The notes below the pieces were generated by a model. The model was not told where the DNA came from. It saw only the letters and a list, made by a program, of their open reading frames with translations, and made no database searches. Positions 11,006 to 31,680 of a DNA stretch of 34,545 nucleotides are shown here, in pieces. Made by a program: the position numbers and the translations under genes. Every line of letters begins with the position of its first letter. Positions within the stretch are counted from its first letter, which is position 1. Origin of the DNA: Deltaproteobacteria bacterium (GTDB lineage: Bacteria > Desulfobacterota > GWC2-55-46 > DRQE01); assembly GCA_023134165.1 (NCBI GenBank), contig JAGLUZ010000088.1:1-34545 (forward strand). The letters run 5' to 3'.

Positions 11006-11062
11006 ATTAATTCCTCCAAAAAAGGCATCCTCACCTTAAAATTATATATAATTATTGGGTTT

Positions 11063-12064: not shown

Positions 12065-12065
12065 A

Positions 12066-13484: not shown

Positions 13485-13565
13485 TTCAAGTATGTTCAAA
13501 ACTAAGGTAAATAAAATATCAAAATGTACTGGAAAATTATATACCAAAACATAAGAAAAAGAAAT

Positions 13566-13602
13566 AAAAAAAGGGAGAGGGTTTTAAAACCCTCTCCCTT
13601 TT
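13566..13602 (-). terminator. Strong intrinsic terminator after the major OmcS-like gene
   Basis: Perfect inverted repeat AAAAGGGAGAGGGTTTT/AAAACCCTCTCCCTTTT (13569-13602) with a T-run on the minus strand. Confidence 0.85.
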
Positions 13603-13636
13603 AAATTATTACTAAATAATATCTAAGGTTCAGATA

Positions 13637-14830
13637 TTACTTATTGTGACATGCGTTACAACCTTGACCAACGGCCATGGCAAGACCAGTCTGGTTACCA
13701 GAAACTACAGCAGTGGTGTAATCCCATCTGAGACCATCAGAGTTTGGTCCACCATGAGCAAAGTGACAGCTCAAGCAGAAGACTTCATCTGTAGCAGGAG
13801 CAGTCTGATCGTAAGCACCAGTACCACCTGCAACACCTGAACCTGTAGCTACAGGTAGATTACCAGTACCTGCACCCCAAGTTGCATAGTTTGTAAGGTC
13901 GATTATAGTGTTTCCTGAACTTGAAGTAGCTGTTCCATCACCTGTTAGCTGAGTTCCAACTGGATGTCTTGTCCAGTCAACACCTGAAGCGTTGTTATCA
14001 ACTATACCGTCATTGTTCTGATCCTCATGCCATGCACCATGACACTGGGTACAGAAGTATGAGAATGATGTTGAATATACATTGTTGTTTAAACCCTGAT
14101 ATACAGGCCAGATGTTACCACCAAGGGCGTTACCTGTTGGAGCAGAGTTATCACCGGCATTAACACCACCAGTATAAGAATCACCTAAGTCGGTAATGAA
14201 CTCAAGTGTATTACCAAGGGTTGTCCAATCTCCAACAGCATTACCCTGTTCAGCTATATTAGCTCTAAGGTTTCTATAGACATTTACAGAAGCTGTTGTT
14301 ACGTTAGTACCATGTGGATCATGACAATTTGTACACTGTAAAGAAGGCATAACTGCAGGAACAGTTGCACCTGGAGGTGTACCAGCAGCGTTTAATGAAT
14401 GACCTGTATCGATTGAGGCTGCACCGTCTGCAACAAAGGTAATACCATTCCAAAGACCAGTACCACTAAAGTCTCCGCCAGCTCCAACAAGACTAAAGTC
14501 TGTTGCACCAAGAGCAAAAGGTGCCGTCTCTAGGTAAACAGATGGAGGAGTTGTTGCAGCAAGAAGTGCGTTATATACTATATCGTTGTTTGATGCTACA
14601 CCTGTATCTGCATGACATGAAAGACAGAAGTCTGATGTTGTACCAGTACCCCTTAAAAGAATTGCAGTTGGTGTACCACCAAGTGTTGCACCACCCTGGC
14701 TGTTATGCATTGTGTGGCATGAACCACAAGCAAGGCCGCCTGAGCCTTTGTGTACGGCCATTGCAGGTGTAGCGATCAAGATAAGACCGGCTACGATTGC
14801 TAGGGCTGTCATTACGAATGTTCTAGTCAT
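13637..14830 (-). CDS. omcS: OmcS-family hexaheme c-type cytochrome, candidate nanowire subunit (paralog 1)
   Basis: ATG 14830 with SD GGAGG; signal peptide ending PAMA; six CxxCH; motifs in the same order as Geobacter OmcS: VH..CGSCHTMHNSQGG, LLRG, CLSCH, GGDF, GHSL, CTNCHDPHG, YRNL, CTQCH, RHPVG, CLSCHFAH, CNACHNK. The gene symbol is a family-level assignment. Confidence 0.9.
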   Translation of the reverse strand: MTRTFVMTALAIVAGLILIATPAMAVHKGSGGLACGSCHTMHNSQGGATLGGTPTAILLRGTGTTSDFCLSCHADTGVASNNDIVYNALLAATTPPSVYLETAPFALGATDFSLVGAGGDFSGTGLWNGITFVADGAASIDTGHSLNAAGTPPGATVPAVMPSLQCTNCHDPHGTNVTTASVNVYRNLRANIAEQGNAVGDWTTLGNTLEFITDLGDSYTGGVNAGDNSAPTGNALGGNIWPVYQGLNNNVYSTSFSYFCTQCHGAWHEDQNNDGIVDNNASGVDWTRHPVGTQLTGDGTATSSSGNTIIDLTNYATWGAGTGNLPVATGSGVAGGTGAYDQTAPATDEVFCLSCHFAHGGPNSDGLRWDYTTAVVSGNQTGLAMAVGQGCNACHNK

Positions 14831-14929
14831 AGTTTCCTCCTGTTTTTTAGTGCGTAAAAGCAAGGCCTTTACGTCACTTGTTTGTTAAAACACTTTTTTT
14901 ATAAAAACATTTTAGTCGGTTTGAGCCAA

Positions 14930-15100
14930 TAAAAAAGCCCCAATATGGTTGTGATGGTTGTTTTGGTCTTTTTGGGTAATACCTTTTGGACAACCTTATA
15001 ACAGGACACCCTAGCATTACTCGCAAACTCCAAACACCCTCGTTCCATATGAGGCACACATAACCTCGTCAGATAGGAACCTTCGTCAGCTCTTATCGTT
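14930..15100 (-). promoter_or_regulatory. Long structured 5' leader of the omcS-like gene (candidate cis-regulatory RNA)
   Basis: About 270 nt between promoter and ATG; two hand-folded hairpins (15042-15080 and 14956-15038) followed by a U-run. Confidence 0.4.
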
Positions 15101-15106
15101 AATTAC

Positions 15107-15135
15107 AAATTAACAGATTTTAATCTTTGTGTCAA
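15107..15135 (-). promoter_or_regulatory. Sigma70-type promoter of the omcS-like gene
   Basis: TTGACA-17 bp-TAATTT with extended -10 TG. Confidence 0.6.
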
Positions 15136-15477
15136 GGGAAAAATAATAAAATTTTTATATAAAAACAATCCTTATTTAATAGACCAGCACCCTTGCAAGT
15201 ATTAAGGAAAGTTAATATTATCACATTTGCAACTCATAAAAAGATAAAAAACTTTTTTGAAATCCTCGGAATATGCACTATATCAGTAATAAAAAAACCC
15301 TGTACGAATTGTGAAGATGTATCAGCATCAGATGGTGTATTCATTATATAGTATAAGGATTGGTTTTGGGGAGAAAATTAAAATAAAGAAGATGCTCTTT
15401 ATACTTGACATTTTTACCAATAGATAAAATAATAAGGACGCACGCAGAAGTTTTAAAAATAAGGGGGAATTTTAATA

Positions 15478-16683
15478 ATGCAAAAAAATAAAGTACGCAA
15501 CATATTGATGGTAATGGTTGCGTTACTATCTCTTACGGCCTTTACGGGAACACTAGCCTCGGAGGCACTCGCAGTGGAGGAGAGTAAGTTTCGTAAGCGG
15601 TTTCAAAAGTATCATAAGGAACATAAATTTAAGCACCAAGTAAAAAACGTAAAAAAGAACAAGAAGAAGATAGTCGCCGAGGTTGAGGCAATCTTTATTG
15701 AGTTTGAGGCCGCAACAGAGGAGCGCGAAAAGCTCTACCTAATAGACCTAGCGATAAATATGGCGAACATGCATATGGAGTGGAACAAAGGGCCAAAAGA
15801 GCTATTAGAGAGAGCAGAGGCACATCGTCAACCAATCTTGAATGATATAAAGGCAAGGAAGAAGGCTGCAAAAGCAAGAAGGAAGGCCGAGAAGACACCT
15901 GGTAACTTTGTCTTAGATGCAAACGGCAAGGAGGCCATGGAAAAGGCCGGGGTTGCCGCAGTCATATACCCTCACTGGGTTCACAGGTCTTTTATGAGAT
16001 GTAAGGTATGCCACGAAGATATATTCCAGATGAAACGCGGGGCAAATGAATTAAACCATAAGAACTTTGATGAAGGAAAGTTCTGTGGTACGTGTCATAA
16101 TGGTGAATTATCCTTTGATACAAAACCAAAAGAGAACTGCGAAAGGTGTCATTCCTTTGGAAGTGTAGAGTCAAAGAAGCTTATGAACCTCAAGTACTAT
16201 GACCAAAAGAAGTTTGAGGAAATAGCAGAGAGACTCGGCACAGAATGGAATCATGACAAGTTACCAAATGGTAAGCTACCACGCACAAAGAAGTTTAAGG
16301 CCATCAACTGGGTTGAATTAGATAACTTAGAGGCATTTAAGCCACTCGTAGCCCTAGAGAAAGGCATGACCGTGGATAGTAAGGAAACAAACGGCGTTAG
16401 AGACACTGACATTCTCTTTAATGTTGATAGTTCCTTCATGAAGGACATTATCTTTAGCCACAAGATACACACGGCACGCCTAAAATGCGCCATGTGTCAT
16501 GATAAGATATTTAAGAAGGAGCTTGGCTCAAGCAAGGTAACGATGCTTCAGATAAAAGAAGGCAGTGCCTGCGGAACATGTCACGGTCGCGTTTCTTTTA
16601 GTAATAAGAACTGCAAGAGATGTCACGCTCAACCAAAAGGAGAGGTTCCTAAAGGCGTATTAATTCGCCCCGCCTCAAATTAG
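15478..16683 (+). CDS. Periplasmic hexaheme cytochrome c with two c7-type triheme domains and a basic helical N-terminal domain
   Basis: Signal peptide ending ALA; YPHWVH..CKVCH..CGTCH..CERCH and FSHKIH..CAMCH..M..CGTCH..CKRCH, the pattern of GSU1996-type c7 domains. Confidence 0.88.
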   Translation: MQKNKVRNILMVMVALLSLTAFTGTLASEALAVEESKFRKRFQKYHKEHKFKHQVKNVKKNKKKIVAEVEAIFIEFEAATEEREKLYLIDLAINMANMHMEWNKGPKELLERAEAHRQPILNDIKARKKAAKARRKAEKTPGNFVLDANGKEAMEKAGVAAVIYPHWVHRSFMRCKVCHEDIFQMKRGANELNHKNFDEGKFCGTCHNGELSFDTKPKENCERCHSFGSVESKKLMNLKYYDQKKFEEIAERLGTEWNHDKLPNGKLPRTKKFKAINWVELDNLEAFKPLVALEKGMTVDSKETNGVRDTDILFNVDSSFMKDIIFSHKIHTARLKCAMCHDKIFKKELGSSKVTMLQIKEGSACGTCHGRVSFSNKNCKRCHAQPKGEVPKGVLIRPASN

Positions 16684-16830: not shown

Positions 16831-17679
16831 TTACTCGTACTTGTGTCGTTTCCATTTGTAGGGAAGATCTATAATGGTACCTGCTTCTTTGATGCTCTGA
16901 AATGCCTTTAGAGCGTCACAAAGAATTGTCCTGTGCTGGGGGGCGTTAAAGGGTTCCCCTAAGGGATGCCCCATAGGCCACTGAACAAATAAAGCCCTAG
17001 GTACACCTGTCTTCTCAGTTATATCCCTTACAAAGGTTACCCCAATTGTAGGAATACCTCCCTCTTCAAGTACTCTTTGTACCAATCCAACGGACCGGTT
17101 ACAGGTGATTCAGCCAGGGCTTAGGATAACAACATCGACTTTATCTTCTTTTAGACGACGCAAAACCTTTGGAGCTGATTCATTAATTAATACATCTACT
17201 AAGCCGCCAACGATATGCCCCATAAAACCGTAGTGACTTGTAGCAACCTCACTGATTACCCCCTCACCTGCAAGCTCACGCAGACGCTCTATTGGGAGTA
17301 CGATATTTACGTCTTTATCAGCATCACTGTGGTCGTAATAATCATGGGTAATCTTAAGATTTTTTGTATCTGTACCAGAAGGGATAGCCCTAAAAGTTGC
17401 GTCCCCTTCAGCGTCATACATATCAAATGGCTCATCTGCTGAGAGGTGAACGCCAGCTGTGGTGATAAGAGCTACCTTAAGCTCGCTTAAAGGTTTTTTA
17501 AGTGGCGTCCAGGGTATATTTGAGTCTGTGTCATTTAAATCATTATTATCAGTAGAACTCATTTTCATAGAAGAATCTCCTTTTGGGTTAGAGACAAGAT
17601 GCGGAGCAAGAAAGGCCACAACTGAGGGTAGCCTCGATAGTATTGAAGAGATAAGACGGTTCTTAAACCTTGAACTCAT
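16831..17679 (-). CDS. Selenoprotein of the glycine/sarcosine/betaine/D-proline reductase component B (GrdB/PrdB-like) family, Sec at codon 190
   Basis: Track ORFs 17110..17739 and 16831..17085 are in one frame, joined by ...CCT GGC TGA ATC ACC TGT AAC CGG TCC GTT GGA TTG (PG-U-ITC-NRSVGL). Family motifs VALITTAGVH, DVNIVLPIERLREL, LEEGGIPT, PRALFVQWPMGHPLG. ATG 17679 with SD AGGAG gives 282 aa. Confidence 0.9.
17078..17103 (-). promoter_or_regulatory. Bacterial SECIS element
   Basis: UGU-A-ACCGGUCC-GUU-GGAUUGGU-ACA hairpin; the apical loop begins with GU, 18 nt after the UGA at 17112-17110. Confidence 0.8.
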
Positions 17680-17692
17680 AAGGGAGCTCCTA

Positions 17693-20590
17693 CTAAGCGT
17701 CTTTTTCTGCTGTGCCTTCACCACTGGTAGTATCATCACTACCCGCAGAATCTGGATCTGGTTTAGGCTTTACAGGCAAGGTAAAGACAGGTGCCTTAAA
17801 CCACTTTAGTCTTAGTGCATTTAGAACAACACTTACAGAGCTCATTGCCATAACAGCGGCCGCATATACTGGATTTAGCACAATACCAAAGAAAGGGTAA
17901 AGGATGCCAGCGGCTACAGGGATAAGTGTTGCATTATAGAAAAATGCCCAAAAAAGATTTTGCTTGATATTCCTAATCGTTGCCCTGCTAAGTTCAATGG
18001 CAGTGACAATATGACGGAGATCATCTCGTATGAGGGTTATATCAGAGGCCTCCAAGGCAATATCAGCGCCACTACCAACGGTTATACCAACGTCAGCGCA
18101 GGCAAGAGCAGGTGCGTCATTTACACCGTCCCCAACCATTGCTACGTACCTTCCAGGTTGCTGAAGCCTCTTCACCTCAATGGCCTTATCCTCTGGTAAA
18201 ACCTCAGGGAGGATTCTTTTAATACCAAGCTCAGCACCAACTGCAAAGGCAGTTCGTCTGTTATCCCCAGTTAAGAGTACAACCTCTATACCAAGGGCTT
18301 GAACAGCTCTAATTGCCTCCCTTGAGTTTTCTTTTAGAGTATCAGCTACAGCAATAGCACCGAGGATAACGCTATCTAGTGCAATAAGGACCGGGGTCTT
18401 GCCTGCCTCAGCCAATTGGTTTATCTTCTCCTCAAGGCTACGAGGGATAAGTACGTCTTGCTCCTCCATAAAACTTTCATTACCAATTACAACCTCACCC
18501 TCATCTATTGTAGCACTAACACCGTAACCAGCATCAGCCTTAAAGCTCTCAATCTCTTCTACCTTGATATTACGTTTTTCTGCTTCTGCTACTATTGCCT
18601 TGCCAATTGGGTGCTCAGAGCCTGTCTCAACACCAGCGGCAATCCTAAGGACAGCATCTGCATCATGGCCAGTCTCCTCAGAAGCTATAACGTCAGTGAC
18701 CGAGGGCTCTCCTTTTGTAAGAGTCCCAGTCTTATCAAAGACCATAATAGAGACCTTATGGGCAATCTCCAAAGAATCTCCACCCTTAATTAACACCCCG
18801 AGTTCAGCCCCCCTGCCCGTACCAACCATAATAGAGGTTGGGGTTGCAAGCCCAAGTGCGCACGGACAAGCGATAATAAGGACAGTCACAAAGGCAAGAA
18901 CAGCGTGCGTAAAACTTGGCTCAGGGCCAAGGAGGACCCAGATAAAGAAGGTTACCATTGAGATGGCTATAACGACTGGAACAAAGTAAGAGGCTACGAG
19001 GTCTGCTGTCTTCGCAATTGGCGGCTTTGCACCTTGCGCCTCCTCAACCATCGTAATAATTCGTGAAAGTACAGTTTCTTTTCCAACCCTAAGGGCTTGA
19101 AACTTAAAGGCACCTGTCTTATTTATTGTCCCAGCCGTAACCAAGCCCCCTGCACTCTTATCAACAGGCATACTCTCACCTGTTACCATAGATTCATCAA
19201 CCGAAGAAGCCCCGCTTAGGATAACCCCGTCTACGGGAACTCTCTCACCAGGTCTAACAACTAGGATATCGCCTGCGACAATATCCTCAAGTGGAACTTC
19301 TGTCTCTGTGCCTTCCCTAAAGATACACGCAGTATCTGGGCGTAGGGATATAAGTTTTTTTATTGCATCTGTTGTGCGAGCTCTGGCACGAGCCTCCAAG
19401 AACCTGCCAAATAAAATAAGTACAATAATTGCCGCTGAGGTATCAAAGTAAACAGCAAGCTCGATAACTGAGGCCTCAAAAAATACAGGATAAAAAGTAA
19501 CCAAAACGCTGAAAAAGTATGCCGCACTAGTACCAACAACAATTAAGGTATTCATATCTGCGCCGTGACGAGTAAGAGACTTCCAAGCCCCGCGGTAGAA
19601 CTCAAAGCCGCACCAAAACTGGACAGGTGTTGCCAGGACAAACTGAGCAATAAATATCTCTTTTGTTGTGAGAGTGATAATATTACCAAGACCTAGGAAG
19701 GTGGCATTCATTAGGATAAATATCGGTACTGTAAGGAGTGTGCCAATACCAAGACGAAGCTTTAAATTCTTATCAATACTTTGTTTCTCTGGCGTCTCAC
19801 CAGAATACTGACTCTTCTCTTCATCTCCTAACTCATCAACTTCAAAGCCTGAGGTCTCAATGGCACGTATAATCTCTCTTAATGTAAGTGCTGTTGGTAG
19901 GTACTCAATTATTGCCTTGCTTGAGGAAGAAGTTACGTAGACCCCGACCATACCATCGAGTGCGTCAACTGCGGCCGTAACCAAGTCAGTACTATCAATT
20001 GAGGTCATCCCAACTACAGGAAGAGTTACTTTTTTGGTAGATACACCGTACCCAGTTGAACGAACAATATTTAATAAGTCAATTAAAGTAATATCTAGGC
20101 TATCATAGACAATCCTAATTTTTTCAATGGCAAAATTAACGCTCGCTGAGATTACACCATCAATACTATCAAAGGCATGCTCTATCTTTGAAGCACATGA
20201 GGCACAGGTCATCCCTGTAATTGCGATATGGATTGTTTTTCGTCCTCTATCAGAGGAAAAAACCGATTTTTTATTTTTTAGGAGTAAATTGACCTCAGGT
20301 AGGTTAGCCTTAGGCGTTTGGGACGCGTCCATTGCTCCATCTTCCGTATCATCAGCATTAGTATCACCATCAACCTCAAAGGAAAGGTTTTCCTTAAAGC
20401 GAACCTCTTCAGCCTCTGTCGTGGACTCTACTGCTTCCTCTGTAGGCTTTGAGAGAAAGACCTCTGGACTACGCACAAAGATATCCTTGCAGCTCGTTGA
20501 GCAAAAGTAGAAGGTATTACCTTCAAAATCAGAGTTAATACTTCGCTCAGAGCCCTCCACAAACATGCCGCAGACTGGATCTTGTACCAT
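17693..20590 (-). CDS. copA: Copper(I)-translocating P1B-type ATPase with N-terminal YHS and HMA domains
   Basis: YHS (DPVCGM..FCSTSC), [36 protein letters not shown] and MAMSS. Confidence 0.95.
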
Positions 20591-21346: not shown

Positions 21347-21733
21347 TTAGAAGTATTTAATTGATCCGTCTGCTGTTACATTCGCAGAATTCTGTGGTGC
21401 TGTCTTAAGCAATGTCTGCTTAAGCTGAATAAAACCAGCACCAGCACCATCTAGATTTGCACTTACAAAGCTGATACCAGCTGAGGTTTGATAGCCATAC
21501 TGTTGAAGAATTGCAAGAGTTGTTACTGTTCCATCAACCTTATCGGTTAAGTAAGCCATTGAAGCTGTGTAGGCATTCTTAATATCAGAGGTAAGACCAG
21601 CTTTGTAACCACGTTGCTTGTACTTACTGAACTGAGGAATAGCGATGGCTGCAAGAATTGCGATAATGGCCACAACTATCAAGAGTTCAATCAAGGTAAA
21701 ACCACTTTCTTTCTTGAGTAGTTTTTTAAACAT
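21347..21733 (-). CDS. pilA: Type IVa major pilin, Geobacter-like N-terminus
   Basis: Class III signal G|FTLIELLIVVAIIAILAAIAIPQF; SD AAGGAG; downstream of pilSR with a sigma54 promoter. Confidence 0.95.
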   Translation of the reverse strand: MFKKLLKKESGFTLIELLIVVAIIAILAAIAIPQFSKYKQRGYKAGLTSDIKNAYTASMAYLTDKVDGTVTTLAILQQYGYQTSAGISFVSANLDGAGAGFIQLKQTLLKTAPQNSANVTADGSIKYF

Positions 21734-21849: not shown

Positions 21850-21908
21850 TGACCAGAGGCAATCTGTCAGATTATGACAAAAAACGTCACTTTGGTTGTT
21901 TTTTGTCA
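21850..21908. promoter_or_regulatory. Probable PilR upstream activating sequences
   Basis: Cluster of TGAC/GTCA half-sites: TGTCA-N5-TGACA (21865-21879), TGAC-N7-GTCA (21875-21889) and TGTCA (21904-21908), upstream of the sigma54 promoter. Confidence 0.55.
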
Positions 21909-24184
21909 TTTTTTGCGTCTTCTTTTGAGCTAAATTTCATAAGTTCTTTAATGAGTGTGCCAGCAATCTCTTCATATGTATCATCTTCCTCTACAGAAAA
22001 CCGATAATATTTCAAAGCATTTGGAATATCCCCTATCTCAAGGTAGGAATTTCCAAGGTAATACAGAGCCTTGGCTCGTAGTTGTTTTACCTCAATTGAA
22101 AATGCAGCCCTCGTTAGGTACCGAATAGAACATTCAAAATCCCCAACCTCAAAGCATGAGAGGCCAAGTGCCATCAAACCTTCCTTTTCAATCTTATCCC
22201 AGACCGTTGTTGCGTGCCTCTCTAAGTATTTAACGGCATTTACGTAGTCCTTTAACTCATAATAAGTAACCCCTAGGCCAAGGTTACCCTTACTAAACTC
22301 GCCACGTATTGTTTTAAAGACCTCTAAGGCCTCGCTGCGTCGCTCTAAGGCATTTAAGGCAATCCCTAAGTCATAACCAACAAAGGGGTCACTGCTAATT
22401 TCAAAGGCTTCTTGCAGTGTTTTTACGGCTTGCTCCTGATATTCCTTGCCAAGTTTCATCTCGATTAGTCCCTTAACCCGTAGAGGGGTGATAAATCTCT
22501 CGGTAATCCCCTCTTTTTTGTAAAAACCAAGAACCCTCTCAACCTCAAGTAAGCTCTTCTTTAGCTGAGCCTCACCAGTATCAAAGATATACTGCCTCTC
22601 ATCATCACTGCAAGGATTAAGAGAATTAAAGCCCCACCTTGATATTAGTTCTTTATTGGCTTCATTGTTTTTCAGGTAAAGAACTGAGGTGTCATCAAAG
22701 ACGACCGCACTCCAGTCCTTGGCACCCTCAAAGACAGAGCACACTTTGTCAGTTGTACTAATCAGTGCCACTTTAAAGCCGTGTTCTTGCTCGAGCCTAC
22801 CAAGGCGAGCCTGGTCACTTATCTGGCGAGTTTTCCAAAAATGATAAGGGGAATAAACAGTTGGAGTTCTACCATCGATAAAAGGAGCTATATCGTTATA
22901 AATAAGGTAACCACCATAAACATACTTATTATAGATTGCCCCCTCTGGTTCTTTATCTTTAATAAAACTAAGGCTACCTTCTGGAAAAACCCCACGCTTT
23001 AAATCAAGACCATAACCGTTTATAGTTCCAACAAGAAACGCATTATAGGAAAGGCCAAGGGTTAGGATAAGGACGAGTAAAAAAGAGAACTTCTCTACTA
23101 ATTCACCATTCTTCTTTGAGCCTTCTCGTTGAAAATATCCCCCGTAAGTAGCAACCATCGGAGCTGAGATAAAAGCAAAAAGAGGAATCCACCTAGCATG
23201 ACTTGTTGCCATATAAAGAAAAGCAGAGGTAATCATCAGATCACGAAGCTTTATCTCTTTTAGTTTACGCAACCACAAAAAGGCCAAGGAATAGAGAAGT
23301 ATTAGGAATGAAGTTTTTTGGAGCGAAAATGGGTACGCATCAAAGAATAACGCACCTAGAGGAACCCTCATCCACTCACCAATATACTGAAGAGCCTCAA
23401 CATTCTCACTGCTTTGATGAATAAACGGAAATACCACGAGTTCAGCACCGTAGGGGTTAATTACCGAGACAAGTGGAATCAGTAAAGAGATAATAAAGAG
23501 CCTTTTAAAATCCTTTGAAAAATCACTTATCCCGCGAGCTTTAATAACCTCAGAGACAAAACTCCCGATGGCATAAGAACCAACGAGAAAAATTCCAAGG
23601 ATAAAACTAGAGTGAATATTAACCCACAAAATTTGAAGCGGAAGAAGTGCTAAGAGGTAAACCGGCAACCCCTTACGCTCCTCTAATCGGTCTAAATTTA
23701 GGAGGAGCAAGTAGAGCGAGACAAAGAGAAAACCAAAGAGGTGTGGTCTTATAAAGAAACGCATCTGTGTTCCAGCAAGAACAAGAAAGAGAAGAGCCAA
23801 GCAGAACCAGGTACGTTTCTTACCTGCAAGGAGTGTAAAGTTTTTCCAAAGAACTATAAAGGTTGACCCGAGAATCACAAACTGGAACACGGCAAGACCA
23901 AACCAGCCACCAAGGTAGGTAAAGACAATATGGGCTATAACCTGAAAACCCCACGTAAAGTCAATCCACTTTGAGCCTCCAAAGGTATAGCTAAATGGGT
24001 CAAAGTCTGGTACTTGAAGGTTCTCAAATATCCACTGACCGCTCTTTAAGGCCCAAAATATATCACTATCCCAGCGTTGTTTCTGAAAAACACTTAACAA
24101 AAGAAATACAGCAAAGACTATAAAAAATAAGATACGCCCTTTATTTTCGTATCTCTGCAAGTAATTACTTATCTGAGTCTTCAT
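21887..24184 (-). CDS. GT-C-like polytopic membrane protein with C-terminal TPRs, putative pilin glycosyltransferase
   Basis: DIFWALKSG..DPFSYT..WIDFTW, RPHLF, LWVNIHSSF, INPYG, IGEW, YGGYLIY..FIDGR motifs of a widespread pilin-locus membrane family; C-terminal TPRs. Confidence 0.65.
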   Translation of the reverse strand: MKTQISNYLQRYENKGRILFFIVFAVFLLLSVFQKQRWDSDIFWALKSGQWIFENLQVPDFDPFSYTFGGSKWIDFTWGFQVIAHIVFTYLGGWFGLAVFQFVILGSTFIVLWKNFTLLAGKKRTWFCLALLFLVLAGTQMRFFIRPHLFGFLFVSLYLLLLNLDRLEERKGLPVYLLALLPLQILWVNIHSSFILGIFLVGSYAIGSFVSEVIKARGISDFSKDFKRLFIISLLIPLVSVINPYGAELVVFPFIHQSSENVEALQYIGEWMRVPLGALFFDAYPFSLQKTSFLILLYSLAFLWLRKLKEIKLRDLMITSAFLYMATSHARWIPLFAFISAPMVATYGGYFQREGSKKNGELVEKFSFLLVLILTLGLSYNAFLVGTINGYGLDLKRGVFPEGSLSFIKDKEPEGAIYNKYVYGGYLIYNDIAPFIDGRTPTVYSPYHFWKTRQISDQARLGRLEQEHGFKVALISTTDKVCSVFEGAKDWSAVVFDDTSVLYLKNNEANKELISRWGFNSLNPCSDDERQYIFDTGEAQLKKSLLEVERVLGFYKKEGITERFITPLRVKGLIEMKLGKEYQEQAVKTLQEAFEISSDPFVGYDLGIALNALERRSEALEVFKTIRGEFSKGNLGLGVTYYELKDYVNAVKYLERHATTVWDKIEKEGLMALGLSCFEVGDFECSIRYLTRAAFSIEVKQLRAKALYYLGNSYLEIGDIPNALKYYRFSVEEDDTYEEIAGTLIKELMKFSSKEDAKNDKKQPK

Positions 24185-25595
24185 ACTTCTCCAGTTTATA
24201 TCTTATCGAGCGGAAGGTTATACCCAGAATCTCAGCGGCTTTTTTCTTCACCCCACCGGCCTTCTTCATAGCAGTCATTATTATCTTTTTCTCAAAATTA
24301 TTTACTGCACTCTCTAGGTTGAAACCCTGTTCAGAGAAATCAGCTGGAGGTGCCTCACTTAGCTCTCCTTGAAAATCAACTGACCTGCTACCAACACCAT
24401 TACCTAGGCCATCTGCAAACCCCTCTCTAATCTCTGGAGGCAAGCAAGGGGGCATTAACTTATCCCCCTTTTCTAGAGCAACACCACGCTCAATTGCGTT
24501 CTCAAGCTCACGCACATTCCCCTTAAAACCGAAGTCAAGGAACATCGCCATGACCTCTTCAGATACACTCTTAACCTCTTTTCCAGCCTCCAAGCAATGC
24601 TTACCTAGAAAATAACGTACAAGGGCAGGGATATCTTCCTTTCTATCCCTAAGGGGCGGGGTTTTTATCCTTATAACATTTAACCTATAGAAGAGATCTT
24701 CCCTGAAACGCCCAGCCTCGACCTCTTTCTCAACGTCCTTATTTGTTGCCGCAACGAGCCTTATATCTACAGATATATCTGTAAGCCCGCCAACGCGTCT
24801 AAAGTTCCTCTCTTGGATAAAACGAAGTAACTTAACCTGCAAGTTAAGTGGCAGTTCCGTTACCTCATCAAGGAAGAGAGTACCTTCATTTGCAAGTTCA
24901 GCAAGGCCTTTTTTATTTGCTACTGCCCCTGTAAAGGCACCTTTTTGGTGGCCAAAAAGCTCACTCTCAAGGAGGTTCTCTGGGACAGCCCCGCAGTTAA
25001 TAGTAACAAATGACGAGTCCTTCCTTGGGCTCTCACCATGTATGGCTCTCGCTATAAGCTCTTTCCCTGTCCCACTCTCTCCAGATATAAGGACATTTGC
25101 CTTGGTCTCTGAAACACTTAAGACCAGTTCATATATCTCCTTCATTGGCGCAGAGGTACCAATAATTCCCCCAAGACCAAAGATTGTCTTTTGATCTTTC
25201 TTCAGTATAAGGTTTTCACGCTTTACCCTTTGCCACTCTAGGGCTCTCTTTAGGTGTAACTTAATATCATCAATATTAAAGGGCTTTGTGAAGTAGTCGT
25301 AAGCCCCAGATTTCATCGCATCAATTGCAGTATCAACTGAGGCGAAAGCCGTAATAATCATAAATATTACCTCAGGGCAAAGCTCCTTTACAGCCTTAAG
25401 GAGACCAACCCCACCCATGCCAGGCATCTTTAAATCCGAGATAATAAGATCCACAGGTGAGCCTTCTATATACTCAAGAGCCTTCTCTGCGGAAGGAAAG
25501 GCAACTGTATCGTACCCCTCTTTACTTAACATTATTGAGAGTAGATCGCGCATACTCTCCTCATCATCCACTATAACTATCTTTTCATTTGCCAT
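24165..25595 (-). CDS. pilR: Sigma54-dependent response regulator PilR
   Basis: Receiver (VDDE, SDLKMP, KPF), AAA+ (GESGTGKE, GAFTGA, LFLDE, GNVREL), Fis-type HTH; located between pilS and pilA. Confidence 0.92.
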   Translation of the reverse strand: MANEKIVIVDDEESMRDLLSIMLSKEGYDTVAFPSAEKALEYIEGSPVDLIISDLKMPGMGGVGLLKAVKELCPEVIFMIITAFASVDTAIDAMKSGAYDYFTKPFNIDDIKLHLKRALEWQRVKRENLILKKDQKTIFGLGGIIGTSAPMKEIYELVLSVSETKANVLISGESGTGKELIARAIHGESPRKDSSFVTINCGAVPENLLESELFGHQKGAFTGAVANKKGLAELANEGTLFLDEVTELPLNLQVKLLRFIQERNFRRVGGLTDISVDIRLVAATNKDVEKEVEAGRFREDLFYRLNVIRIKTPPLRDRKEDIPALVRYFLGKHCLEAGKEVKSVSEEVMAMFLDFGFKGNVRELENAIERGVALEKGDKLMPPCLPPEIREGFADGLGNGVGSRSVDFQGELSEAPPADFSEQGFNLESAVNNFEKKIIMTAMKKAGGVKKKAAEILGITFRSIRYKLEKYEDSDK

Positions 25596-25640: not shown

Positions 25641-27311
25641 TTAATGCAATGAACGCTCTACAGCAAGAGGGAGAGATACTGAAAATGTCGTCCCCTTTCC
25701 AAGCGTGCTCTTTAGAGTAATTGAGCCGTCGTGTTCTTTTATAATCCTATGGGCAAGGACAAGGCCAAGACCTGTTCCGTTTTCTTTTGTTGAAAAAAAC
25801 GGATCAAATATCTTTGATGCAACATCCTCTGCCATTCCCTCTCCATTATCAGTTATCTCAATTAAGACGTCGTACCTGTCTTTAGTACCCCCTGCTCTAG
25901 GCCTCGACTGAGTGCCAAGTGAGGAGGTTACTTTTAGTACTCCACCACTTGGCATTGCACTTGCCGCATTTAAGAACAAATTCCAAAAAACCTGAGATAA
26001 CTGTCGTTTATCTCCCTCTACAACAAGCCCTGCACGAACACTATCCTCTATAGTTATGAGCTGAGCCTCGGGGGAATTTTCAAAAATATCGAGAGTCTCA
26101 TTGATGATACCACCAAGAGAGAATCTCTCGCTTTGCCCTTTCGCTGGTCTTGCAAAGACAAGGAAATCTGTAATAAGAGCATTTAACCTCTCACTCTCTT
26201 TTAGGACAATCTCCATAAGACGTTTCTTCTCACCATCGAGTTCTAATTCTTGCCCAAGGAGCTGGATTGAACCGCTCATACTGGCCAGAGGGTTACGAAC
26301 CTCATGGGCAAGGGAGGCTGAGAGTTCACCGAGTGCCTTTAATTTATCATCACGTCTAAGTTGCTCCTCAAGGGCCTTAATCTCAGTCATATTCTGAAAG
26401 ATTACAATCATCTCCATATCCCCGCCCTCACCCTTTGTTATTGAAAAACCAAGGCAAAGACCTTCGCTATCTTTAAAGGAGTAGACCCTCTCAAAGTCAC
26501 CAACAAGGTTATCTTTGTTTAAGTGGGTATCAAAGAGATCTGGGAAGACAAAGTTTATATCACCGTAATAAACCTCACGAAGTGAAAAACCAGTAATGGT
26601 CGAGGCCGCTTGGTTAAAAGAGGTTATCCTAAAACGCGCATCTAGGGTGATTATTCCACTCGTAATATTATCAACAATATGCCTGTTTAGTGCCTCCAAG
26701 CGACCGTAATCAATATCACGCTCCTCAAGGGCTCGCTCAATTGTTTCTGTCTTTTTTGCAAGGTAACCACCGAGGTAGGCAACTGTACAGAAGGCAAGTA
26801 TATTTATAGCAAGCGTTGTTAGGACATCCTCTGAGGTTGGGTCAACAACAGATGAGAAGACCTTATACTTTGCAGGGAGAACGCCGTAATAGTCAAGGTC
26901 AAGCAGTAACCCATACGCAAGACAAGATATAACTGCGGTATAGTAGCCACCCCTGCTACCAAGAAGAATTCCACCTCCAATAACAACAAATAGGTAGAGT
27001 ACAGAGAGGTAGCTCTCGGTTGCACCCGTTACAAAGACAATTACAGTTACGAGTGCTACGTCAGCACTTAATTGAAAAAAAGCAAAGAGGCCTAGGTTTT
27101 TTATCTTGTTAAGTAGGAGTGCGTAGATAATGCTAAGGAGCCCAACAACGACCACAACAACATGCATTGGGTAGTAAATGGGCTGGGTAAAGGAGTGACC
27201 GCTGACTTGGAACCAAGTTCCAACAATAAGAAAGGCAATAGCTAGGACAACCCTTAGCACCATCAGGCCAAGGAGCTTTGTCCTAATTGAGTGTTCTGAC
27301 ACAGATGTCAT
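25641..27311 (-). CDS. pilS: Sensor histidine kinase PilS
   Basis: About 6 TM helices, PAS-like region, H-box AHEVRNPL, N box, DNGEG, FDPFFSTK..GTGLGL. Confidence 0.92.
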   Translation of the reverse strand: MTSVSEHSIRTKLLGLMVLRVVLAIAFLIVGTWFQVSGHSFTQPIYYPMHVVVVVVGLLSIIYALLLNKIKNLGLFAFFQLSADVALVTVIVFVTGATESYLSVLYLFVVIGGGILLGSRGGYYTAVISCLAYGLLLDLDYYGVLPAKYKVFSSVVDPTSEDVLTTLAINILAFCTVAYLGGYLAKKTETIERALEERDIDYGRLEALNRHIVDNITSGIITLDARFRITSFNQAASTITGFSLREVYYGDINFVFPDLFDTHLNKDNLVGDFERVYSFKDSEGLCLGFSITKGEGGDMEMIVIFQNMTEIKALEEQLRRDDKLKALGELSASLAHEVRNPLASMSGSIQLLGQELELDGEKKRLMEIVLKESERLNALITDFLVFARPAKGQSERFSLGGIINETLDIFENSPEAQLITIEDSVRAGLVVEGDKRQLSQVFWNLFLNAASAMPSGGVLKVTSSLGTQSRPRAGGTKDRYDVLIEITDNGEGMAEDVASKIFDPFFSTKENGTGLGLVLAHRIIKEHDGSITLKSTLGKGTTFSVSLPLAVERSLH

Positions 27312-27313
27312 CG

Positions 27314-28519
27314 TTAACCGCCAGCGGCTCCAGCAAGAGAGAATATAGGCAAGTAAAGAGCCATAACAAGACCACCTACAACAATGCCAAGAAAGGCCAT
27401 TAGTAGTGGCTCAATGAGTGCGGTAAGTGAGGCAACTGCGGCGTCAACTTCATCCTCATAAAAGTCTGCGATCTTACCAAGCATATTATCAAGAGCACCA
27501 GTGGACTCACCAACTGTTATCATCTGGGTAACCATCCCTGGAAAAACCTTTGTTGCGGCCAGCGGCTCTGATAGGGTTTGCCCCTCACTTAGACTTTGAC
27601 GAGCCTTCATTATTGCATTTTCAATGACCTTGTTGCCAGCTGTCTTTGCAACAATCTCCAAGGCCTCAAGGATTGGAACTCCACTTGCCATCATTGTGCC
27701 AAGTGTGCGAGTAAATCTTGCAACAGCTGACTTTTTTAAGAGATCTCCAAAGACTGGCATCTTCAAGAAAAACCCATCCAAAACAAGCTGACCAGTGGCA
27801 GTTTTATACCACTTTTTTAGACCAAAAATAGTAGCACCTATGCCACCAAATATTACGTACCAATAATTACTCATTATATCACTTAAGTCGACAACAACCT
27901 GAGTTGGAGCTGGCAAGGCACTTCCAAAATCAGCAAACATACTCTCAAATATAGGGACAACAAAGACGAGAAGTCCTGTGACAACAAGACCAGCAATTGA
28001 GATAACAGCAGTTGGATAGGTAAGTGCGGCCTTTATCTCACCTTTAAGTTTCTCTGATTTTTCCATAAACTCAGAGAGTCTATTTAGGATTACGTCCAGA
28101 ATACCACCGACCTCTCCTGCGGCTACAAGGTTTACAAAGAGAGAATCAAAGATAACAGGGTGTCTTTTTAAGGCATCTGCAAAGGTGCTACCACCCTCAA
28201 CTGAGGCCTTTACTTCATAGAGGACCTTCTTAAATGGAGGTATCTCTTGCTGGCTCGCAAGTATCTCCAGACACTGCACTAGAGGGAGGCCTGCATCAAT
28301 CATAGTCGCAAACTGGCGGGTAAAGACAACAATGTCCTTGGTCTTTACCTTTGGACCAAAGCCTGGGATCTTAAGCTCAATAGAGCCAAGCCCCTTTTTC
28401 TCAGAAATAGAAGAAGTGGTAATTCCTTTCTGCCTAAGTGAGGCCGTTGCTTGAGCTAAATTGTCTGCTACGACCTGCCCCTTTACCCCGCCCCTTGCGG
28501 TATAAACAAAAGTTGCCAT
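27314..28519 (-). CDS. pilC: Type IV pilus platform protein PilC
   Basis: Two T2SSF domains: FTRQFATMIDAGLPL, AGEVGG, ALTYP, RTLGTM..SGVPI, GESTG, LIEP, LYLPIF. Confidence 0.96.
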   Translation of the reverse strand: MATFVYTARGGVKGQVVADNLAQATASLRQKGITTSSISEKKGLGSIELKIPGFGPKVKTKDIVVFTRQFATMIDAGLPLVQCLEILASQQEIPPFKKVLYEVKASVEGGSTFADALKRHPVIFDSLFVNLVAAGEVGGILDVILNRLSEFMEKSEKLKGEIKAALTYPTAVISIAGLVVTGLLVFVVPIFESMFADFGSALPAPTQVVVDLSDIMSNYWYVIFGGIGATIFGLKKWYKTATGQLVLDGFFLKMPVFGDLLKKSAVARFTRTLGTMMASGVPILEALEIVAKTAGNKVIENAIMKARQSLSEGQTLSEPLAATKVFPGMVTQMITVGESTGALDNMLGKIADFYEDEVDAAVASLTALIEPLLMAFLGIVVGGLVMALYLPIFSLAGAAGG

Positions 28520-28522
28520 CTA

Positions 28523-29767
28523 CTACCCCTTCCTTTGCGGAGCCGACCCTGGTCGCCTAAGAACTCCTGCATTTTGCAACATCTGCTTAAGCTCCTCAGG
28601 ATCAGAGCTTCTACCCATTGCCTCTTCCATTGAAATCTTTCTCTGAGTAAATAGATTCATAAGTGCTTGGTTCATTGTCTGCATGCCGTATTTTTGTTGA
28701 CCAACCTGCATCTGGGAATAAATCTGATGCACTTTATCCTCACGAATTAGATTTCTTATCGCCGAGTTTGGAACCATGACCTCAAGTACCATGGCGCGCC
28801 CTTTACCGTCTGCTGTTTTTGCAAGGAGCTGGGATAAAACACCTTCAAGGACAAAGGAAAGTTGAGCTCGTATCTGTGGTTGCTGATCTGATGAGAAAAC
28901 ATCAACAACTCTGTTTATGGTTTGAACGCATGAATTTGTGTGGAGCGTTGCAAAACAAAGATGACCAGTCTCGGCAATTGTTAAGGCTGTCTCAATTGTC
29001 TCTCTATCTCTAAGCTCTCCGAGGAGTACGACATCAGGGTCTTGCCTAAGGATTGCCTTTAGTGCGTTCTTAAAGGAATGAGTATCTGCGCCAACCTCTC
29101 TTTGATTAACAAGTGAGGTCTTTGATTGATGAAGATACTCAATTGGATCTTCAATGGTTATTATATGTTCTTGTCGCTCTAGATTTATCTGGTTTATAAT
29201 TGCCGCTAAGGTTGTGGATTTACCACTTCCTGTTGGTCCTGTTACAAGAATAAGTCCGCGTGGTTTCCTTGATAACTCTGTTACAACAGGAGGTAGCCCT
29301 AGCTCTGCCATATTTTTTATATCAAATGGAATTGCTCTAAATACACCTGCAACAGCACCTCGCTGGATAAAGAGATTACCCCTAAAACGGCTTACACCCT
29401 TGATACCAAAGGAGAAATCAAGCTCGTTATTTTCCTCAAAAACATGTTTTTGAGCATCCGTTAGGATTGCGTAACAAAGTTGCTTTGTCTCAACAGGTGT
29501 CATAGTTGGCACATTTAGAGGGGCAAGCTTGCCGTGTACACGAAACCTTGGAGGAGAGGACGCAGTTATATGGAGGTCTGAGCCGCCTTGATCAATTAGG
29601 CTACGCAAGAGAGTCTGGAGATCTATCTTCTTAGGTTGCGGTGGAACGGGCGCTCCAGCTGGTCTTTGTGGTGCTCCAGGCGCTCCAGGTGGTCTTTGTG
29701 GTGCTCCAGGCGCTCCAGGTGGTCTTTGTGGTGCTCCAGGTGGTCTTTGTGGTGGTGTTGCGTTCAT
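28523..29767 (-). CDS. pilT: Type IV pilus retraction ATPase PilT with a Pro-rich N-terminal extension
   Basis: GPTGSGKSTT, TIEDPIE, RQDPDVVLLGELRD, GHLCFATLHTN, AIRNLIRE. Confidence 0.97.
   Translation of the reverse strand: MNATPPQRPPGAPQRPPGAPGAPQRPPGAPGAPQRPAGAPVPPQPKKIDLQTLLRSLIDQGGSDLHITASSPPRFRVHGKLAPLNVPTMTPVETKQLCYAILTDAQKHVFEENNELDFSFGIKGVSRFRGNLFIQRGAVAGVFRAIPFDIKNMAELGLPPVVTELSRKPRGLILVTGPTGSGKSTTLAAIINQINLERQEHIITIEDPIEYLHQSKTSLVNQREVGADTHSFKNALKAILRQDPDVVLLGELRDRETIETALTIAETGHLCFATLHTNSCVQTINRVVDVFSSDQQPQIRAQLSFVLEGVLSQLLAKTADGKGRAMVLEVMVPNSAIRNLIREDKVHQIYSQMQVGQQKYGMQTMNQALMNLFTQRKISMEEAMGRSSDPEELKQMLQNAGVLRRPGSAPQRKG
29651..29754. repeat. 30-bp tandem repeat (3 copies plus a partial) in the 5' end of pilT
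   Basis: CGCTCCAG(G/C)TGGTCTTTGTGGTGCTCCAGG at 29651, 29681 and 29711, partial at 29741; encodes PQRPPGAPGA. Confidence 0.95.
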
Positions 29768-29888: not shown

Positions 29889-31607
29889 TCACCTTGGTAA
29901 AACCCTAAGCACTTCATCAACTGTAGTTAAGCCTTCAGAGATCTTACCAATAGCACTTTCCATGAGAGTCTTTACGCCACCCTTCTTTGCAAGTTCTTCA
30001 ATCCCCCGAGCGGTTGCATTATTTAAAATAGCCTCTCTAATCTTCTCTGTTACTAGTATTCCCTCAAATATTGCAATGACCCCATTAAAGCCACTCTCAC
30101 CACAGGTTCCGCACCCCTTCCCGTACTTAAGGCTTGGCCTTAACCCTAGAGCTTGCTCCTCACTAAGGCCGAGTTTTTTTAAGGTTTCTTCAGTACAACT
30201 TGTATCATCGACAATACAATCAGTGCATATTTTTCTAAGCAGTTTTTGCGTAAGAATAAACCTTAGAAGGCTTGCAACTTTAAAGGTATCACTTGCCATC
30301 ACTGATAGTGCCATTGGAGCTGAGTATATGTCCAAAGAATTAATAGAGCTTAGGATAAGACAACCCTGAAGCGCACCTTCGAGGATAATATTACCAACCT
30401 CTTTAGTCTTAATATCGCTTACCATCACAACGTCTGGGAGGTGAGCAAGAACATTCTTTAGGGTTGTAGGAAAATCAAGATCACCAGAAGAATCTACCTC
30501 TACCTGACTGACCCCCTCTAGGCTTGAATAAACAGGATCTTCAACGGTCATGATATTTGTCTTTGGATTATTTAAATCTTTAAGAGCACCGTAGAGTGTT
30601 GTCTTTCTGCCACTTGGACCAGCACCTGAGATAAGTATGATTCCACAAGGTATCCTAAGTGCTGATTTAAATTGCTCTAAAAGGTCAGAGTCAAGGCCAA
30701 GGTCATTTAGGGAAAAGTTAAAAGCTTCTGGCTTTAAAAGTCGGCAGTGTATAACCTCACCAAACTTTGTTGGAAGAGCTGATAGCGAGTACTCGAATTC
30801 TTCACCGTCATCAAGACAAAGCTTAACTACAGCCTTCTTTTTGTCTTTTCCAACCTCAATATCAAGCTTACTCATAATCTTAAGACGCGCAGTAACAGCC
30901 TCACGAACTTTAAATGGCAACTCAAGAAGATCCCTAAGTACTCCGTCTATCTTATACCTAATACGAAAACTCTGCTCATAAGACTCAATATAAATATCAC
31001 TTGCTTTTTTCTTAAAACCCTCAACCAAGATATAATTAACGAGCTTTCTAAGAGATAATACGTCAATGTCCTCTGCATCGACAAAAGCTGTTAGGTCAAA
31101 GCCTGTGTCTTCTTCTGGGAGTAAACTTTCTTCCGCGGGCACCTCGTTAATGGGTTCAAAAAATTCTGCCTCTAGGGTATCCTTTACAAAGACATTATCA
31201 AGGGCTCTGACAATATCACTCTCAGATGCAACTGCAGTTTCAATATTATATCCAGTTAAAAATCTTATATCATCAAGAGCGAGCATATTGGAGGGATCTG
31301 CCATGGCAACAAGGAGAAGGTCATTTAAGAGAGAGATTGGCAAAACAAGGTATTTCCTACAAACCTCTTCTGGGACAAGCCTAAGAGTAGTTCCATCATA
31401 GAGCTCTGTACTTATACTAACTGTTGGAATTCCGTACTGTTTACTTAAAAAAACAGTTAGATCTTCTTCAGTTATAAAACCAAGTTTTGTGAGATTATAA
31501 CCGAGGCGACCACCTGTTTTCTCTTGGCCGTCAACTGCAAGTTGAAGTTGCTCTGGGTTAATTAGACTTTCTTTTATAAGTAAATCGCCTATTCTGTCAG
31601 CCATCAA
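29889..31607 (-). CDS. pilB: PilB/GspE-family protein with MshEN domain and degenerate ATPase motifs
   Basis: MshEN (RIGDLL...RLGYNL), AMADP, ASDIYIE, TVEDPV, CTDC/CGTC Zn motif, GLTTVDEVLRV. Walker A reads GAGPSGRKT, Walker B VMVSD, and both His-box histidines are absent. Confidence 0.85.
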   Translation of the reverse strand: MMADRIGDLLIKESLINPEQLQLAVDGQEKTGGRLGYNLTKLGFITEEDLTVFLSKQYGIPTVSISTELYDGTTLRLVPEEVCRKYLVLPISLLNDLLLVAMADPSNMLALDDIRFLTGYNIETAVASESDIVRALDNVFVKDTLEAEFFEPINEVPAEESLLPEEDTGFDLTAFVDAEDIDVLSLRKLVNYILVEGFKKKASDIYIESYEQSFRIRYKIDGVLRDLLELPFKVREAVTARLKIMSKLDIEVGKDKKKAVVKLCLDDGEEFEYSLSALPTKFGEVIHCRLLKPEAFNFSLNDLGLDSDLLEQFKSALRIPCGIILISGAGPSGRKTTLYGALKDLNNPKTNIMTVEDPVYSSLEGVSQVEVDSSGDLDFPTTLKNVLAHLPDVVMVSDIKTKEVGNIILEGALQGCLILSSINSLDIYSAPMALSVMASDTFKVASLLRFILTQKLLRKICTDCIVDDTSCTEETLKKLGLSEEQALGLRPSLKYGKGCGTCGESGFNGVIAIFEGILVTEKIREAILNNATARGIEELAKKGGVKTLMESAIGKISEGLTTVDEVLRVLPR

Positions 31608-31651: not shown

Positions 31652-31680
31652 ATTTTATAGATTTACTTAAATATTGTCAA
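31652..31680 (-). promoter_or_regulatory. Sigma70-type promoter of pilB
   Basis: TTGACA-17 bp-TAAAAT. Confidence 0.7.

Follow-up and report, generated by a model that had tools for sequence, protein, structure and literature searches.

The closest described counterparts of the gene considered here are the canonical PilB extension ATPases of Geobacter (G. metallireducens structures 5TSG, 5TSH and 6OLJ; G. sulfurreducens structure 5ZFR). Extension ATPases of type IV pili (T4P) are generally system-specific, though Acinetobacter baylyi has extension by two ATPases, PilB and TfpB, and extension ATPases have been reported to interact with one another in two-hybrid assays (PMC11656802, in excerpt). 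In Myxococcus xanthus, an ATPase-deficient Walker A variant of PilB still regulates exopolysaccharide, and the nucleotide-free form has been proposed as the signalling state (excerpts of PMC5544727 and PMC11656802). In Vibrio cholerae MshE and the GSPII domains of Thermus thermophilus PilF, cyclic di-GMP (c-di-GMP) modulates an active motor. FimX of Pseudomonas and Xanthomonas, with degenerate GGDEF-EAL domains, is a c-di-GMP-sensing pseudoenzyme that regulates T4P extension (PMC11656802, in excerpt). Here we describe a pilB-like gene at 29889..31607 on the minus strand of a stretch of 34,545 nucleotides (the window; contig JAGLUZ010000088.1 of the Deltaproteobacteria bacterium assembly GCA_023134165.1, an uncultured organism of seeps or sediments). 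It is probably, with considerable room for doubt, a syntenic PilB orthologue that has turned into a lineage-private pseudo-ATPase and is kept by selection as a non-catalytic c-di-GMP receptor or regulator.

The gene shares with Geobacter PilB its architecture, its zinc motif and its position ahead of pilT-pilC-pilS-pilR. It differs in that the catalytic residues are replaced, the cut-off of the PilB model TIGR02538 is missed and the branch leading to it is about nine times longer. The M. xanthus Walker A variant (Black et al. 2017, PMC5544727, in excerpt) is likewise a PilB with c-di-GMP motifs and without hydrolysis, for which a signalling role is known; here such a role is our proposal. That variant, however, is a point mutant made in the laboratory from a working motor, in an organism whose pilus is complete, whereas the loss described here is natural, covers at least five motifs and is fixed in the lineage. 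With MshE and PilF the protein has in common two 24-residue motifs at a 5-residue spacing, but the attached ATPase domain is catalytically degenerate, and its receptor role is read from sequence. The fold and domain family of FimX are unrelated, and the PilB on which FimX acts is active, whereas here it is PilB itself that is degenerate. A search of the open-access PMC and bioRxiv literature brought up no account of a primary PilB that is catalytically dead in nature. The passages of PMC5065972 that describe the Geobacter mshE-pilT3 pair make no mention of degenerate motifs, and in the excerpts of PMC11656802 the word "degenerate" refers to GGDEF/EAL proteins and not to PilB.

The reading frame is uninterrupted and full-length, as the initial annotation had stated, with 572 codons from a TTG at 31607 to a stop codon at 29889-29891. 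Because the second codon is an ATG (31604) with AGAGG at the usual spacing before it, and because homologues start at the equivalent Met, a product of 571 amino acids seems likelier than one of 572; a protein on record that is identical to it, known from two contigs, is 571 amino acids long. Residues are numbered here with the TTG codon as residue 1. About 45 nucleotides upstream lies a sigma-70-like promoter match (TTGACA-17-TAAAAT, 31652..31680, minus strand). What had been called a good promoter is thus present at 11 of 12 consensus positions, as a pattern match only.

Pfam recognises MshEN (80 bits) and T2SSE (PF00437; 254.2 bits over residues 185-568, gathering threshold 24.9) in the product. 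On TIGR02538, the type IV-A PilB equivalog, the protein scores 421.8 bits, under the cut-off of 675.65; canonical relatives reach 836.2 (P0003), 816.8 (P0010) and 789.9 bits (the PilB of relative G006). The architecture and position of a PilB are nevertheless there, with MshEN/GSPII, N2 and a C-terminal domain with the tetracysteine motif, ahead of pilT-pilC. The order pilB-pilT-pilC-pilS-pilR-TPR (a tetratricopeptide repeat protein gene) is identical in the 9 relatives examined, and the best matches among solved structures are Geobacter PilBs (5zfr, 6olj and 5tsg), aligned over the full length with E values of about 1e-118 to 1e-120. Judged by this shared gene order and these full-length matches, the gene is a true orthologue of the type IVa extension motor PilB.

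Residue roles were taken from a HMMER alignment to G. metallireducens PilB and from the role descriptions in excerpts of PMC5424180; in the ATPase domain, residue numbers here equal the G. metallireducens numbers plus 3. The motifs given below are all on the minus strand. Walker A (30600..30626, residues 328-336), GPTGSGKTT in relatives, reads GAGPSGRKT, so that the Walker A pair is replaced (K334R and T335K); in the same motif T330G aligns to G. metallireducens T327. The Asp box (30528..30542, residues 356-360) is EDPVY where relatives have EDPVE, and E360Y aligns to E357, the Asp-box Glu that coordinates Mg. Walker B with the catalytic residue (30405..30440, residues 390-401) reads LPDVVMVSDIKT for the relatives' DPDIIMVGEIRD, with Gly397 changed to Ser and the residue aligned to the catalytic E395 changed to Asp (E398D). 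The His box (30336..30365, residues 415-424) reads GCLILSSINS instead of GHLVLSTLHT; H416C and H423N align to H413 and H420, and T414Q, just ahead, to T411. Among the arginines, the stretch ERRLPQDGR has become VGKDKKKAV (30828..30854, residues 252-260), and YSLS (30780..30791) stands in place of the relatives' [YF]-R-V-S; R274S and R260V align to the arginine finger R271 and to R257. The arginine 15 residues downstream of the finger, R289, is retained and aligns to R286, a phosphate-binding arginine or second finger. None of the ten changed positions (330, 334, 335, 360, 398, 414, 416, 423, 274 and 260) varies among the homologues of alignment A2 (invariant in 51/51).

As aligned, most of the residues responsible for Mg-ATP binding, for activation of water and for coupling between neighbouring subunits are replaced, and ATP hydrolysis by the PilB-like protein appears very unlikely. 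The initial annotation had reported Walker A and the His box as drifted, in the form given here, and had described the catalytic Glu of Walker B as lost and the arginine region as replaced. The first two motifs stand as quoted and so does the Walker B sequence, but the Glu there has been replaced by Asp rather than simply lost. In the arginine region both ERRLPQDGR and RVS (now SLS) have indeed changed, with R289 surviving.

The same positions are canonical in relatives. Across 40 genomes of the same family and order, the best match to the PilB-like protein is 39-46% identical in every genome. PilB motifs were read in 27 of the 40, chosen as the genomes with the highest-scoring matches together with the other members of the own family, using the syntenic or best-matching PilB. 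Walker A, the Asp box, Walker B and the His box are canonical in 26/26 relatives with data (one genome gave an N-terminal piece only), and the arginine stretch is canonical in 27/27, with a single P-to-T change. Sampling was then widened to 80 loci that surround homologues of PilC in Myxococcota, Nitrospirota, Desulfuromonadales, Binatia and other groups; 37 of these contain a PilB-like open reading frame (ORF) above 300 bits, again with canonical motifs in all 37. Altogether, none of the 114 other PilBs examined carries any of these catalytic changes, a pattern well past what chance would give. The nearest non-self protein in a collection of 5.8 billion is 45-46% identical. A near-length search returned nothing between 46% and 100% identity, a search of shorter fragments over residues 240-470 returned one protein only, at 39%, and a scan of JGI metagenomes returned two loci, at 30% and 46%. 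Close relatives turned up only as Logan contigs, from the sequencing runs X3 and X4 described below.

These counts bear on whether the protein could still be an active motor with an unorthodox site, in which Lys335 and Asp398 would do the work of the canonical Lys and Glu. A lysine does lie next to the substituted Walker A position (R334-K335), the change from Glu to Asp is conservative, and R289 and EDPV are kept. We nonetheless consider such a motor highly improbable, given that ten positions invariant in 51/51 homologues have changed together, including the Mg-coordinating Glu (to Tyr), both His and two arginines, and that 0/114 other PilBs tolerate any of these changes.

The divergence is confined to one gene of the cluster. 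PilB is 41-45% identical to its counterparts in relatives, which are 75-94% identical among themselves, whereas PilT (69-74%, against 69-92% among relatives) and PilC (68-79%, against 66-89%) fall within the usual range. In maximum-likelihood trees, the terminal branch of PilB measures 1.30 substitutions per site versus a median of 0.14 for the other tips, about ninefold; the corresponding values are 0.286 versus 0.307 for PilT and 0.217 versus 0.179 for PilC. PilT and PilC both point to G006 as the nearest relative, and G006 has a canonical PilB. By these comparisons the change is private to this lineage and specific to PilB, and the conversion is recent enough that all sampled relatives keep what reads as the working form. 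As a separate observation, the canonical pilB of one relative (G001; C32 5587-7278, locus L035 2070-3788) contains a single in-frame TAG immediately ahead of the arginine of the RVS finger, with its catalytic motifs intact; a pseudogene of recent date, recoding of the codon or an error of sequencing could each explain it.

Public sequencing runs contain further copies. Identical pieces of the stretch occur in run X1, probably the source, and in run X2; the two come from different studies, both labelled cold seep. Runs X3 (marine sediment) and X4 (another study) contain diverged pieces that are 86-94% identical. No RNA run is among those listed with the stretch. An artefact of assembly or binning, or foreign DNA, that is, a chimeric or horizontally acquired gene, is therefore barely credible, even though the metagenome-assembled genome (MAG) is fragmented (169 contigs) and the GC content of the gene is 0.40 versus 0.44-0.45 in its neighbours. 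Besides recurring in these four runs, the gene lies mid-contig (34.5 kb) in exact synteny with relatives, the identical protein is known from two contigs, the homologues closest to it are the PilBs of those relatives, and its GC content at third codon positions is similar to that of pilT. Foreign origin was rejected on synteny and composition.

Several lines of evidence speak to whether the gene is under selection. Among 282 sites that are invariant in 22 full-length relatives, 134 have changed in the PilB-like protein. We simulated neutral change by mutating the genes of two relatives randomly until the same fraction of invariant sites was altered (200 replicates each; the starting points are living relatives and not the ancestor, and indels are ignored). 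About 540 substitutions were needed, by which point in-frame stops numbered 13 on average, and 0/400 replicates were free of stops; the real gene has none. Its replacements are also milder, with a mean BLOSUM62 score of -0.06 versus -0.72 under neutrality (standard deviation 0.15, best replicate -0.37). Retention of the invariant sites is uneven along the protein: 23/24 in residues 1-56, 19/26 in the rest of N1, 2/9 in the linker, 37/81 in N2, 50/110 in the ATPase core and 17/32 in the C-terminal part.

Contigs of X4 span 1317 nt of the gene; they differ from it at 154 positions (88.3% identity) and align with 0 gaps. Over the matched segments, the canonical pilB genes of G006 and G014 are only 46-66% identical to the PilB-like gene, and since the X4 copy is far closer, X4 evidently carries the derived gene type. 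In the last 69 codons, for which the list of differences looks complete and which account for 28 of that contig's 60, we counted 13.5 synonymous and 14.5 nonsynonymous differences, for a ratio of nonsynonymous to synonymous rates (dN/dS) of 0.29 (binomial P 0.002-0.008 against the neutral expectation of 76%); the depth of these contigs is low (3-6), and any bias from this would inflate dN. Taken together, the 0/400 stop-free simulations, the mild replacements, the gapless X4 copy and the dN/dS of 0.29 support the view that the gene is kept by purifying selection and is not decaying neutrally. Frameshifts in close orthologues, which the initial annotation had named as a sign of neutral decay, are not what the X4 copy displays over the 1317 nt covered. 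Catalytic loss combined with continued purifying selection is the mark of a pseudoenzyme, and the gene shows both, the second in a small dN/dS sample.

The same data weigh on another explanation, in which the gene is a relic under relaxed selection: T4aP (type IVa pili) would be in the course of being lost in a small-genome lineage, pilB would be an early casualty whose stop or frameshift is yet to come, and the N-terminus would have been kept by slower decay or by chance. We consider this unlikely yet worth taking seriously. Relative to X4, the pilB-like gene is indeed changing about twice as fast as pilT (11.7% versus 5.8% nucleotide difference, the X4 pilT pieces being 94.2% identical). A relic is hard to reconcile, however, with simulations in which no replicate stayed open, with replacements significantly milder than neutral, or with the absence of gaps over 1317 nt and the dN/dS of 0.29 over 69 codons. 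Nor does it fit readily with PilT and PilC, parts of the same machine, evolving at normal rates, or with the contrast between 96% retention in the c-di-GMP region and 45% in the core.

The best-preserved region of the protein, residues 1-56, coincides with its presumptive c-di-GMP head. Motif I, RIGxxLIxxSLIxxxxLxxxVxxQ (31524..31595, minus strand, residues 5-28), and motif II, RLGxxLTxxGFIxxxxLxxxLxxQ (31437..31508, minus strand, residues 34-57), are each 24 residues long and are separated by the five-residue spacer EKTGG. At the key positions they fit the published MshEN consensus, RLGxx(L/V/I)(L/V/I)xxG(L/V/I)(L/V/I)xxxxL...L..Q in two 24-residue copies (PMC11731258, in excerpt). Motif I deviates at position 2 (I for L) and at position 10 (S for G), and motif II at position 7 (T); relatives share the same or similar deviations and have Lys at the Gly position of motif I. 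On NF053729, the NCBIfam model of the c-di-GMP motif, the protein scores 60.5 against a cut-off of 38, and it is the only one of the assembly's three PilB/GspE-type proteins to pass, the two canonical paralogues giving 25.6 bits and no match. The five differences listed for the X3 variant in motif II all fall at non-consensus positions, and the genome has 9 GGDEF matches. We infer that the retained N-terminal head would bind c-di-GMP.

The tetracysteine zinc motif, which is conserved across the PilB/GspE clade (PMC5424180, in excerpt), is kept as well (CTDC at 461-464 and CGTC at 499-502; 30102..30227, minus strand). The earlier statement that the MshEN motifs and the CxxC/CxxC pair are intact thus holds for both. 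The c-di-GMP-responsive regulator that had been proposed on that basis agrees with the probable loss of hydrolysis, with selection on the gene and with the preservation of the c-di-GMP region; the regulator role itself stays a reading of the sequence.

By language-model prediction, the overall PilB fold may be kept. ESM Atlas's own model of the protein has a predicted template modelling (TM) score of 0.63 and a mean predicted local distance difference test (pLDDT) of 0.77, and its residues 185-572 match T2SSE clusters at TM 0.90-0.94. The top Foldseek matches are the Geobacter PilB structures 5tsh and 5zfr. AlphaFold2 (AF2), run on a shallow alignment of 52 sequences, gave a mean pLDDT of 61.9, with 66-84 in the N-terminal domain and 33-76 in the C-terminal domain. 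A canonical relative modelled with the same 52 sequences reached a mean of 68.1; it was equally poor over 292-369 and reached 72-90 over 400-569. The C-terminal confidence of the PilB-like protein is under that of the canonical control, which weakly favours a relic. A complex prediction for two copies of residues 185-572 scored 0.01 against a mark of 0.42, which counts neither way.

The rest of the genome bears on both the relic and the question of what might power a pilus here. The assembly consists of 169 contigs that add up to 1.6 Mb, at 84% completeness, and that of G006 is 87% complete. Most relatives have an 18-kb block with pilQ-P-O-N-M, minor pilins, a PilY1-like gene and pilD; among family members, a strong PilM is present in 12/16 and PilD in 13/16. 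A tblastn search with the 18.5-kb region of relative G009 that holds the block found no orthologous match in our assembly for any block gene. The failure to find PilM, a T4aP-type PilQ, a PilY1-like gene, minor pilins and PilD in the assembly is the main support for a relic, and in the nearest relative, G006, PilM, PilD, a T4aP-type PilQ and a PilY1-like gene were likewise not found. On the other hand, absence from incomplete MAGs is weak evidence, and the assembly is only 84% complete. The missing pilD is probably an assembly gap rather than a loss, because the prepilin-type genes of a second system, described below, also need a peptidase. That genes of the block are missing from both assemblies could reflect a shared loss or a shared gap in assembly or binning.

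The initial annotation had held that extension would need another PilB or another mechanism. A second intact pilB was sought in the genome, and two canonical PilB/GspE-type ATPases were found, together with a second PilT (contig C90), among four other proteins of the superfamily. One of them is a canonical MshEN-type ATPase split across the ends of contigs C23 and C126, which overlap by about 150 identical nt as judged by eye. It stands in a row of genes for a gspF-like platform, the ATPase, a distant PilM-like protein, a PilN-like protein and a PilO-like protein. Contig C41 carries a GspD-like secretin followed by two prepilin-type genes, and this secretin and these pseudopilins probably belong to the C23/C126 system. 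The other ATPase is encoded by a 774-codon open frame on C137 (2082-4403, plus strand). All through the relatives, including those with a canonical PilB, there are counterparts of each kind at about 30-35% identity to the query, so the paralogues look old and family-wide rather than like replacements gained here. Two further features of these loci may be recorded. The C23/C126 row directly adjoins a respiratory nitrate-reductase-like operon. The C137 ATPase has an N-terminal extension of about 200 residues without a Pfam match, and its gene is flanked by a di-haem cytochrome c peroxidase gene and two FIMAH-domain genes.

It is conceivable that either paralogue extends this pilus. A motor could be borrowed in this way, since two-ATPase extension is known elsewhere, though extension ATPases are usually system-specific. 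One version of this idea makes the PilB-like protein a structural or adaptor subunit, either as a dead PilB that shares mixed hexamers with one of the canonical paralogues or as an adaptor that, depending on c-di-GMP, recruits that paralogue to PilC, with the pilus still being extended. The canonical C23/C126 and C137 ATPases would be available for it, the normal rates of PilT and PilC look as if the machine works, R289 is retained as an arginine finger, and the two-ATPase extension and two-hybrid interactions cited above (PMC11656802, in excerpt) provide precedent. We still regard it as decidedly unlikely: besides the system specificity reported in the same source, both paralogues are ancient and occur in relatives with a canonical PilB, one has its own platform and PilM/N/O-like genes, and the residues of the inter-subunit nucleotide site (R274, R260, T414 and both His) have been lost from the PilB-like protein.

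If the protein is instead the selected, non-catalytic c-di-GMP receptor or regulator that we favour, it would no longer power pilin polymerisation. Its N-terminal head would bind c-di-GMP, making it a non-enzymatic signal receptor, and its output could take one of two routes. The first is gating of the platform, in which the protein would dock on PilC/PilM and control access for PilT or another motor. The second is signal relay, in which its c-di-GMP state would be passed on to other pathways, as with the ATPase-deficient PilB of M. xanthus. Any pilus extension would then need one of the two canonical PilB/GspE paralogues. It is tempting to go further and suppose that PilB signalling, documented directly only in M. 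xanthus, is the sole role here, and that a c-di-GMP-loaded dead PilB plugs or adapts the PilC/PilM site and so chooses between PilT and a borrowed motor; we consider this stronger form quite unlikely.

Several observations weigh against a selected receptor or regulator. The finger R289 and a lysine beside the former Walker A lysine remain, and with R289 and K335 in place residual nucleotide binding is conceivable. The AF2 comparison could point to some structural loosening of the ATPase core. The purifying selection that followed the burst of change is read from one 69-codon stretch (28 listed of the 154 differences) on low-depth contigs, and c-di-GMP binding, the oligomeric state and the partners are all inferred. 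Finally, pilQ-P-O-N-M, the minor pilins, the PilY1-like gene and pilD were not found in the 84%-complete assembly, nor PilM, PilD, a T4aP-type PilQ and the PilY1-like gene in the 87%-complete G006; a missing block possibly fits a pilus system under dismantling, with partial loss of the machine.

The neighbours of the gene are all on the minus strand. Directly downstream lies the PilT retraction ATPase (28523..29767), which had been called canonical and has canonical motifs and a score to match (TIGR01420, 485.9 versus a cut-off of 319.1). It carries a proline-rich N-terminal extension, with about 45 residues of repeats (PPQRPPGAPQRPPGAPGAP..., 29630-29767) before the conserved ATPase; BLAST alignments of PilT begin at subject residues 41-77 in G006, G029 and G018, so some relatives are also N-terminally extended. 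The PilC platform protein follows (27314..28519; Pfam T2SSF, 231.8 bits), then a PilS-like histidine kinase (25641-27311; 6TM_PilS, HisKA and HATPase_c), a PilR-like sigma-54 response regulator (24165-25595; Response_reg, Sigma54_activat and HTH_8) and the TPR protein (21887-24184; TPR families, syntenic in relatives). The last gene of the cluster encodes a prepilin-type protein (21347-21733) with an N_methyl match; its residues 8-65 match the Myxococcus PilA model at 54.6 bits, below the cut-off.

Elsewhere in the window, positions 9797-16683 hold multihaem c-type cytochrome genes (Paired_CXXCH, cytochrome c7 and NapC/NirT-like) interleaved with genes for NHL-repeat/OmpA proteins; this cluster suggests electron transfer in the periplasm or outside the cell, in a genome that measures only about 1.6-1.9 Mb. 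A short ORF at 17110-17739 (minus strand), overlapping the end of a gene for a copper/heavy-metal P-type ATPase (17693-20590, minus strand), corresponds to the C-terminal third only of GRDB, selenoprotein B of glycine/sarcosine/betaine reductase (profile 213-345), and may be truncated or interrupted by selenocysteine.

For annotation, the gene carries a warning. Naming by homology would probably call its product "type IV-A pilus assembly ATPase PilB", as for the canonical relatives, yet pilus assembly by this protein alone is almost certainly impossible. Few parts of the T4P machine are as conserved as PilB, which is 75-94% identical across an order of bacteria, and here the primary, syntenic copy appears to have lost its motor chemistry beside a normal PilT and PilC. 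This would amount to a natural experiment in favour of motor-independent regulation by PilB, an idea that has rested mainly on point mutants of M. xanthus. The PilB-like protein could also serve structural and interaction work as a PilB locked in the signalling state. Were signalling its sole role, the gene would be a natural separation-of-function allele, in which motor and sensor, usually one protein, are split between genes.

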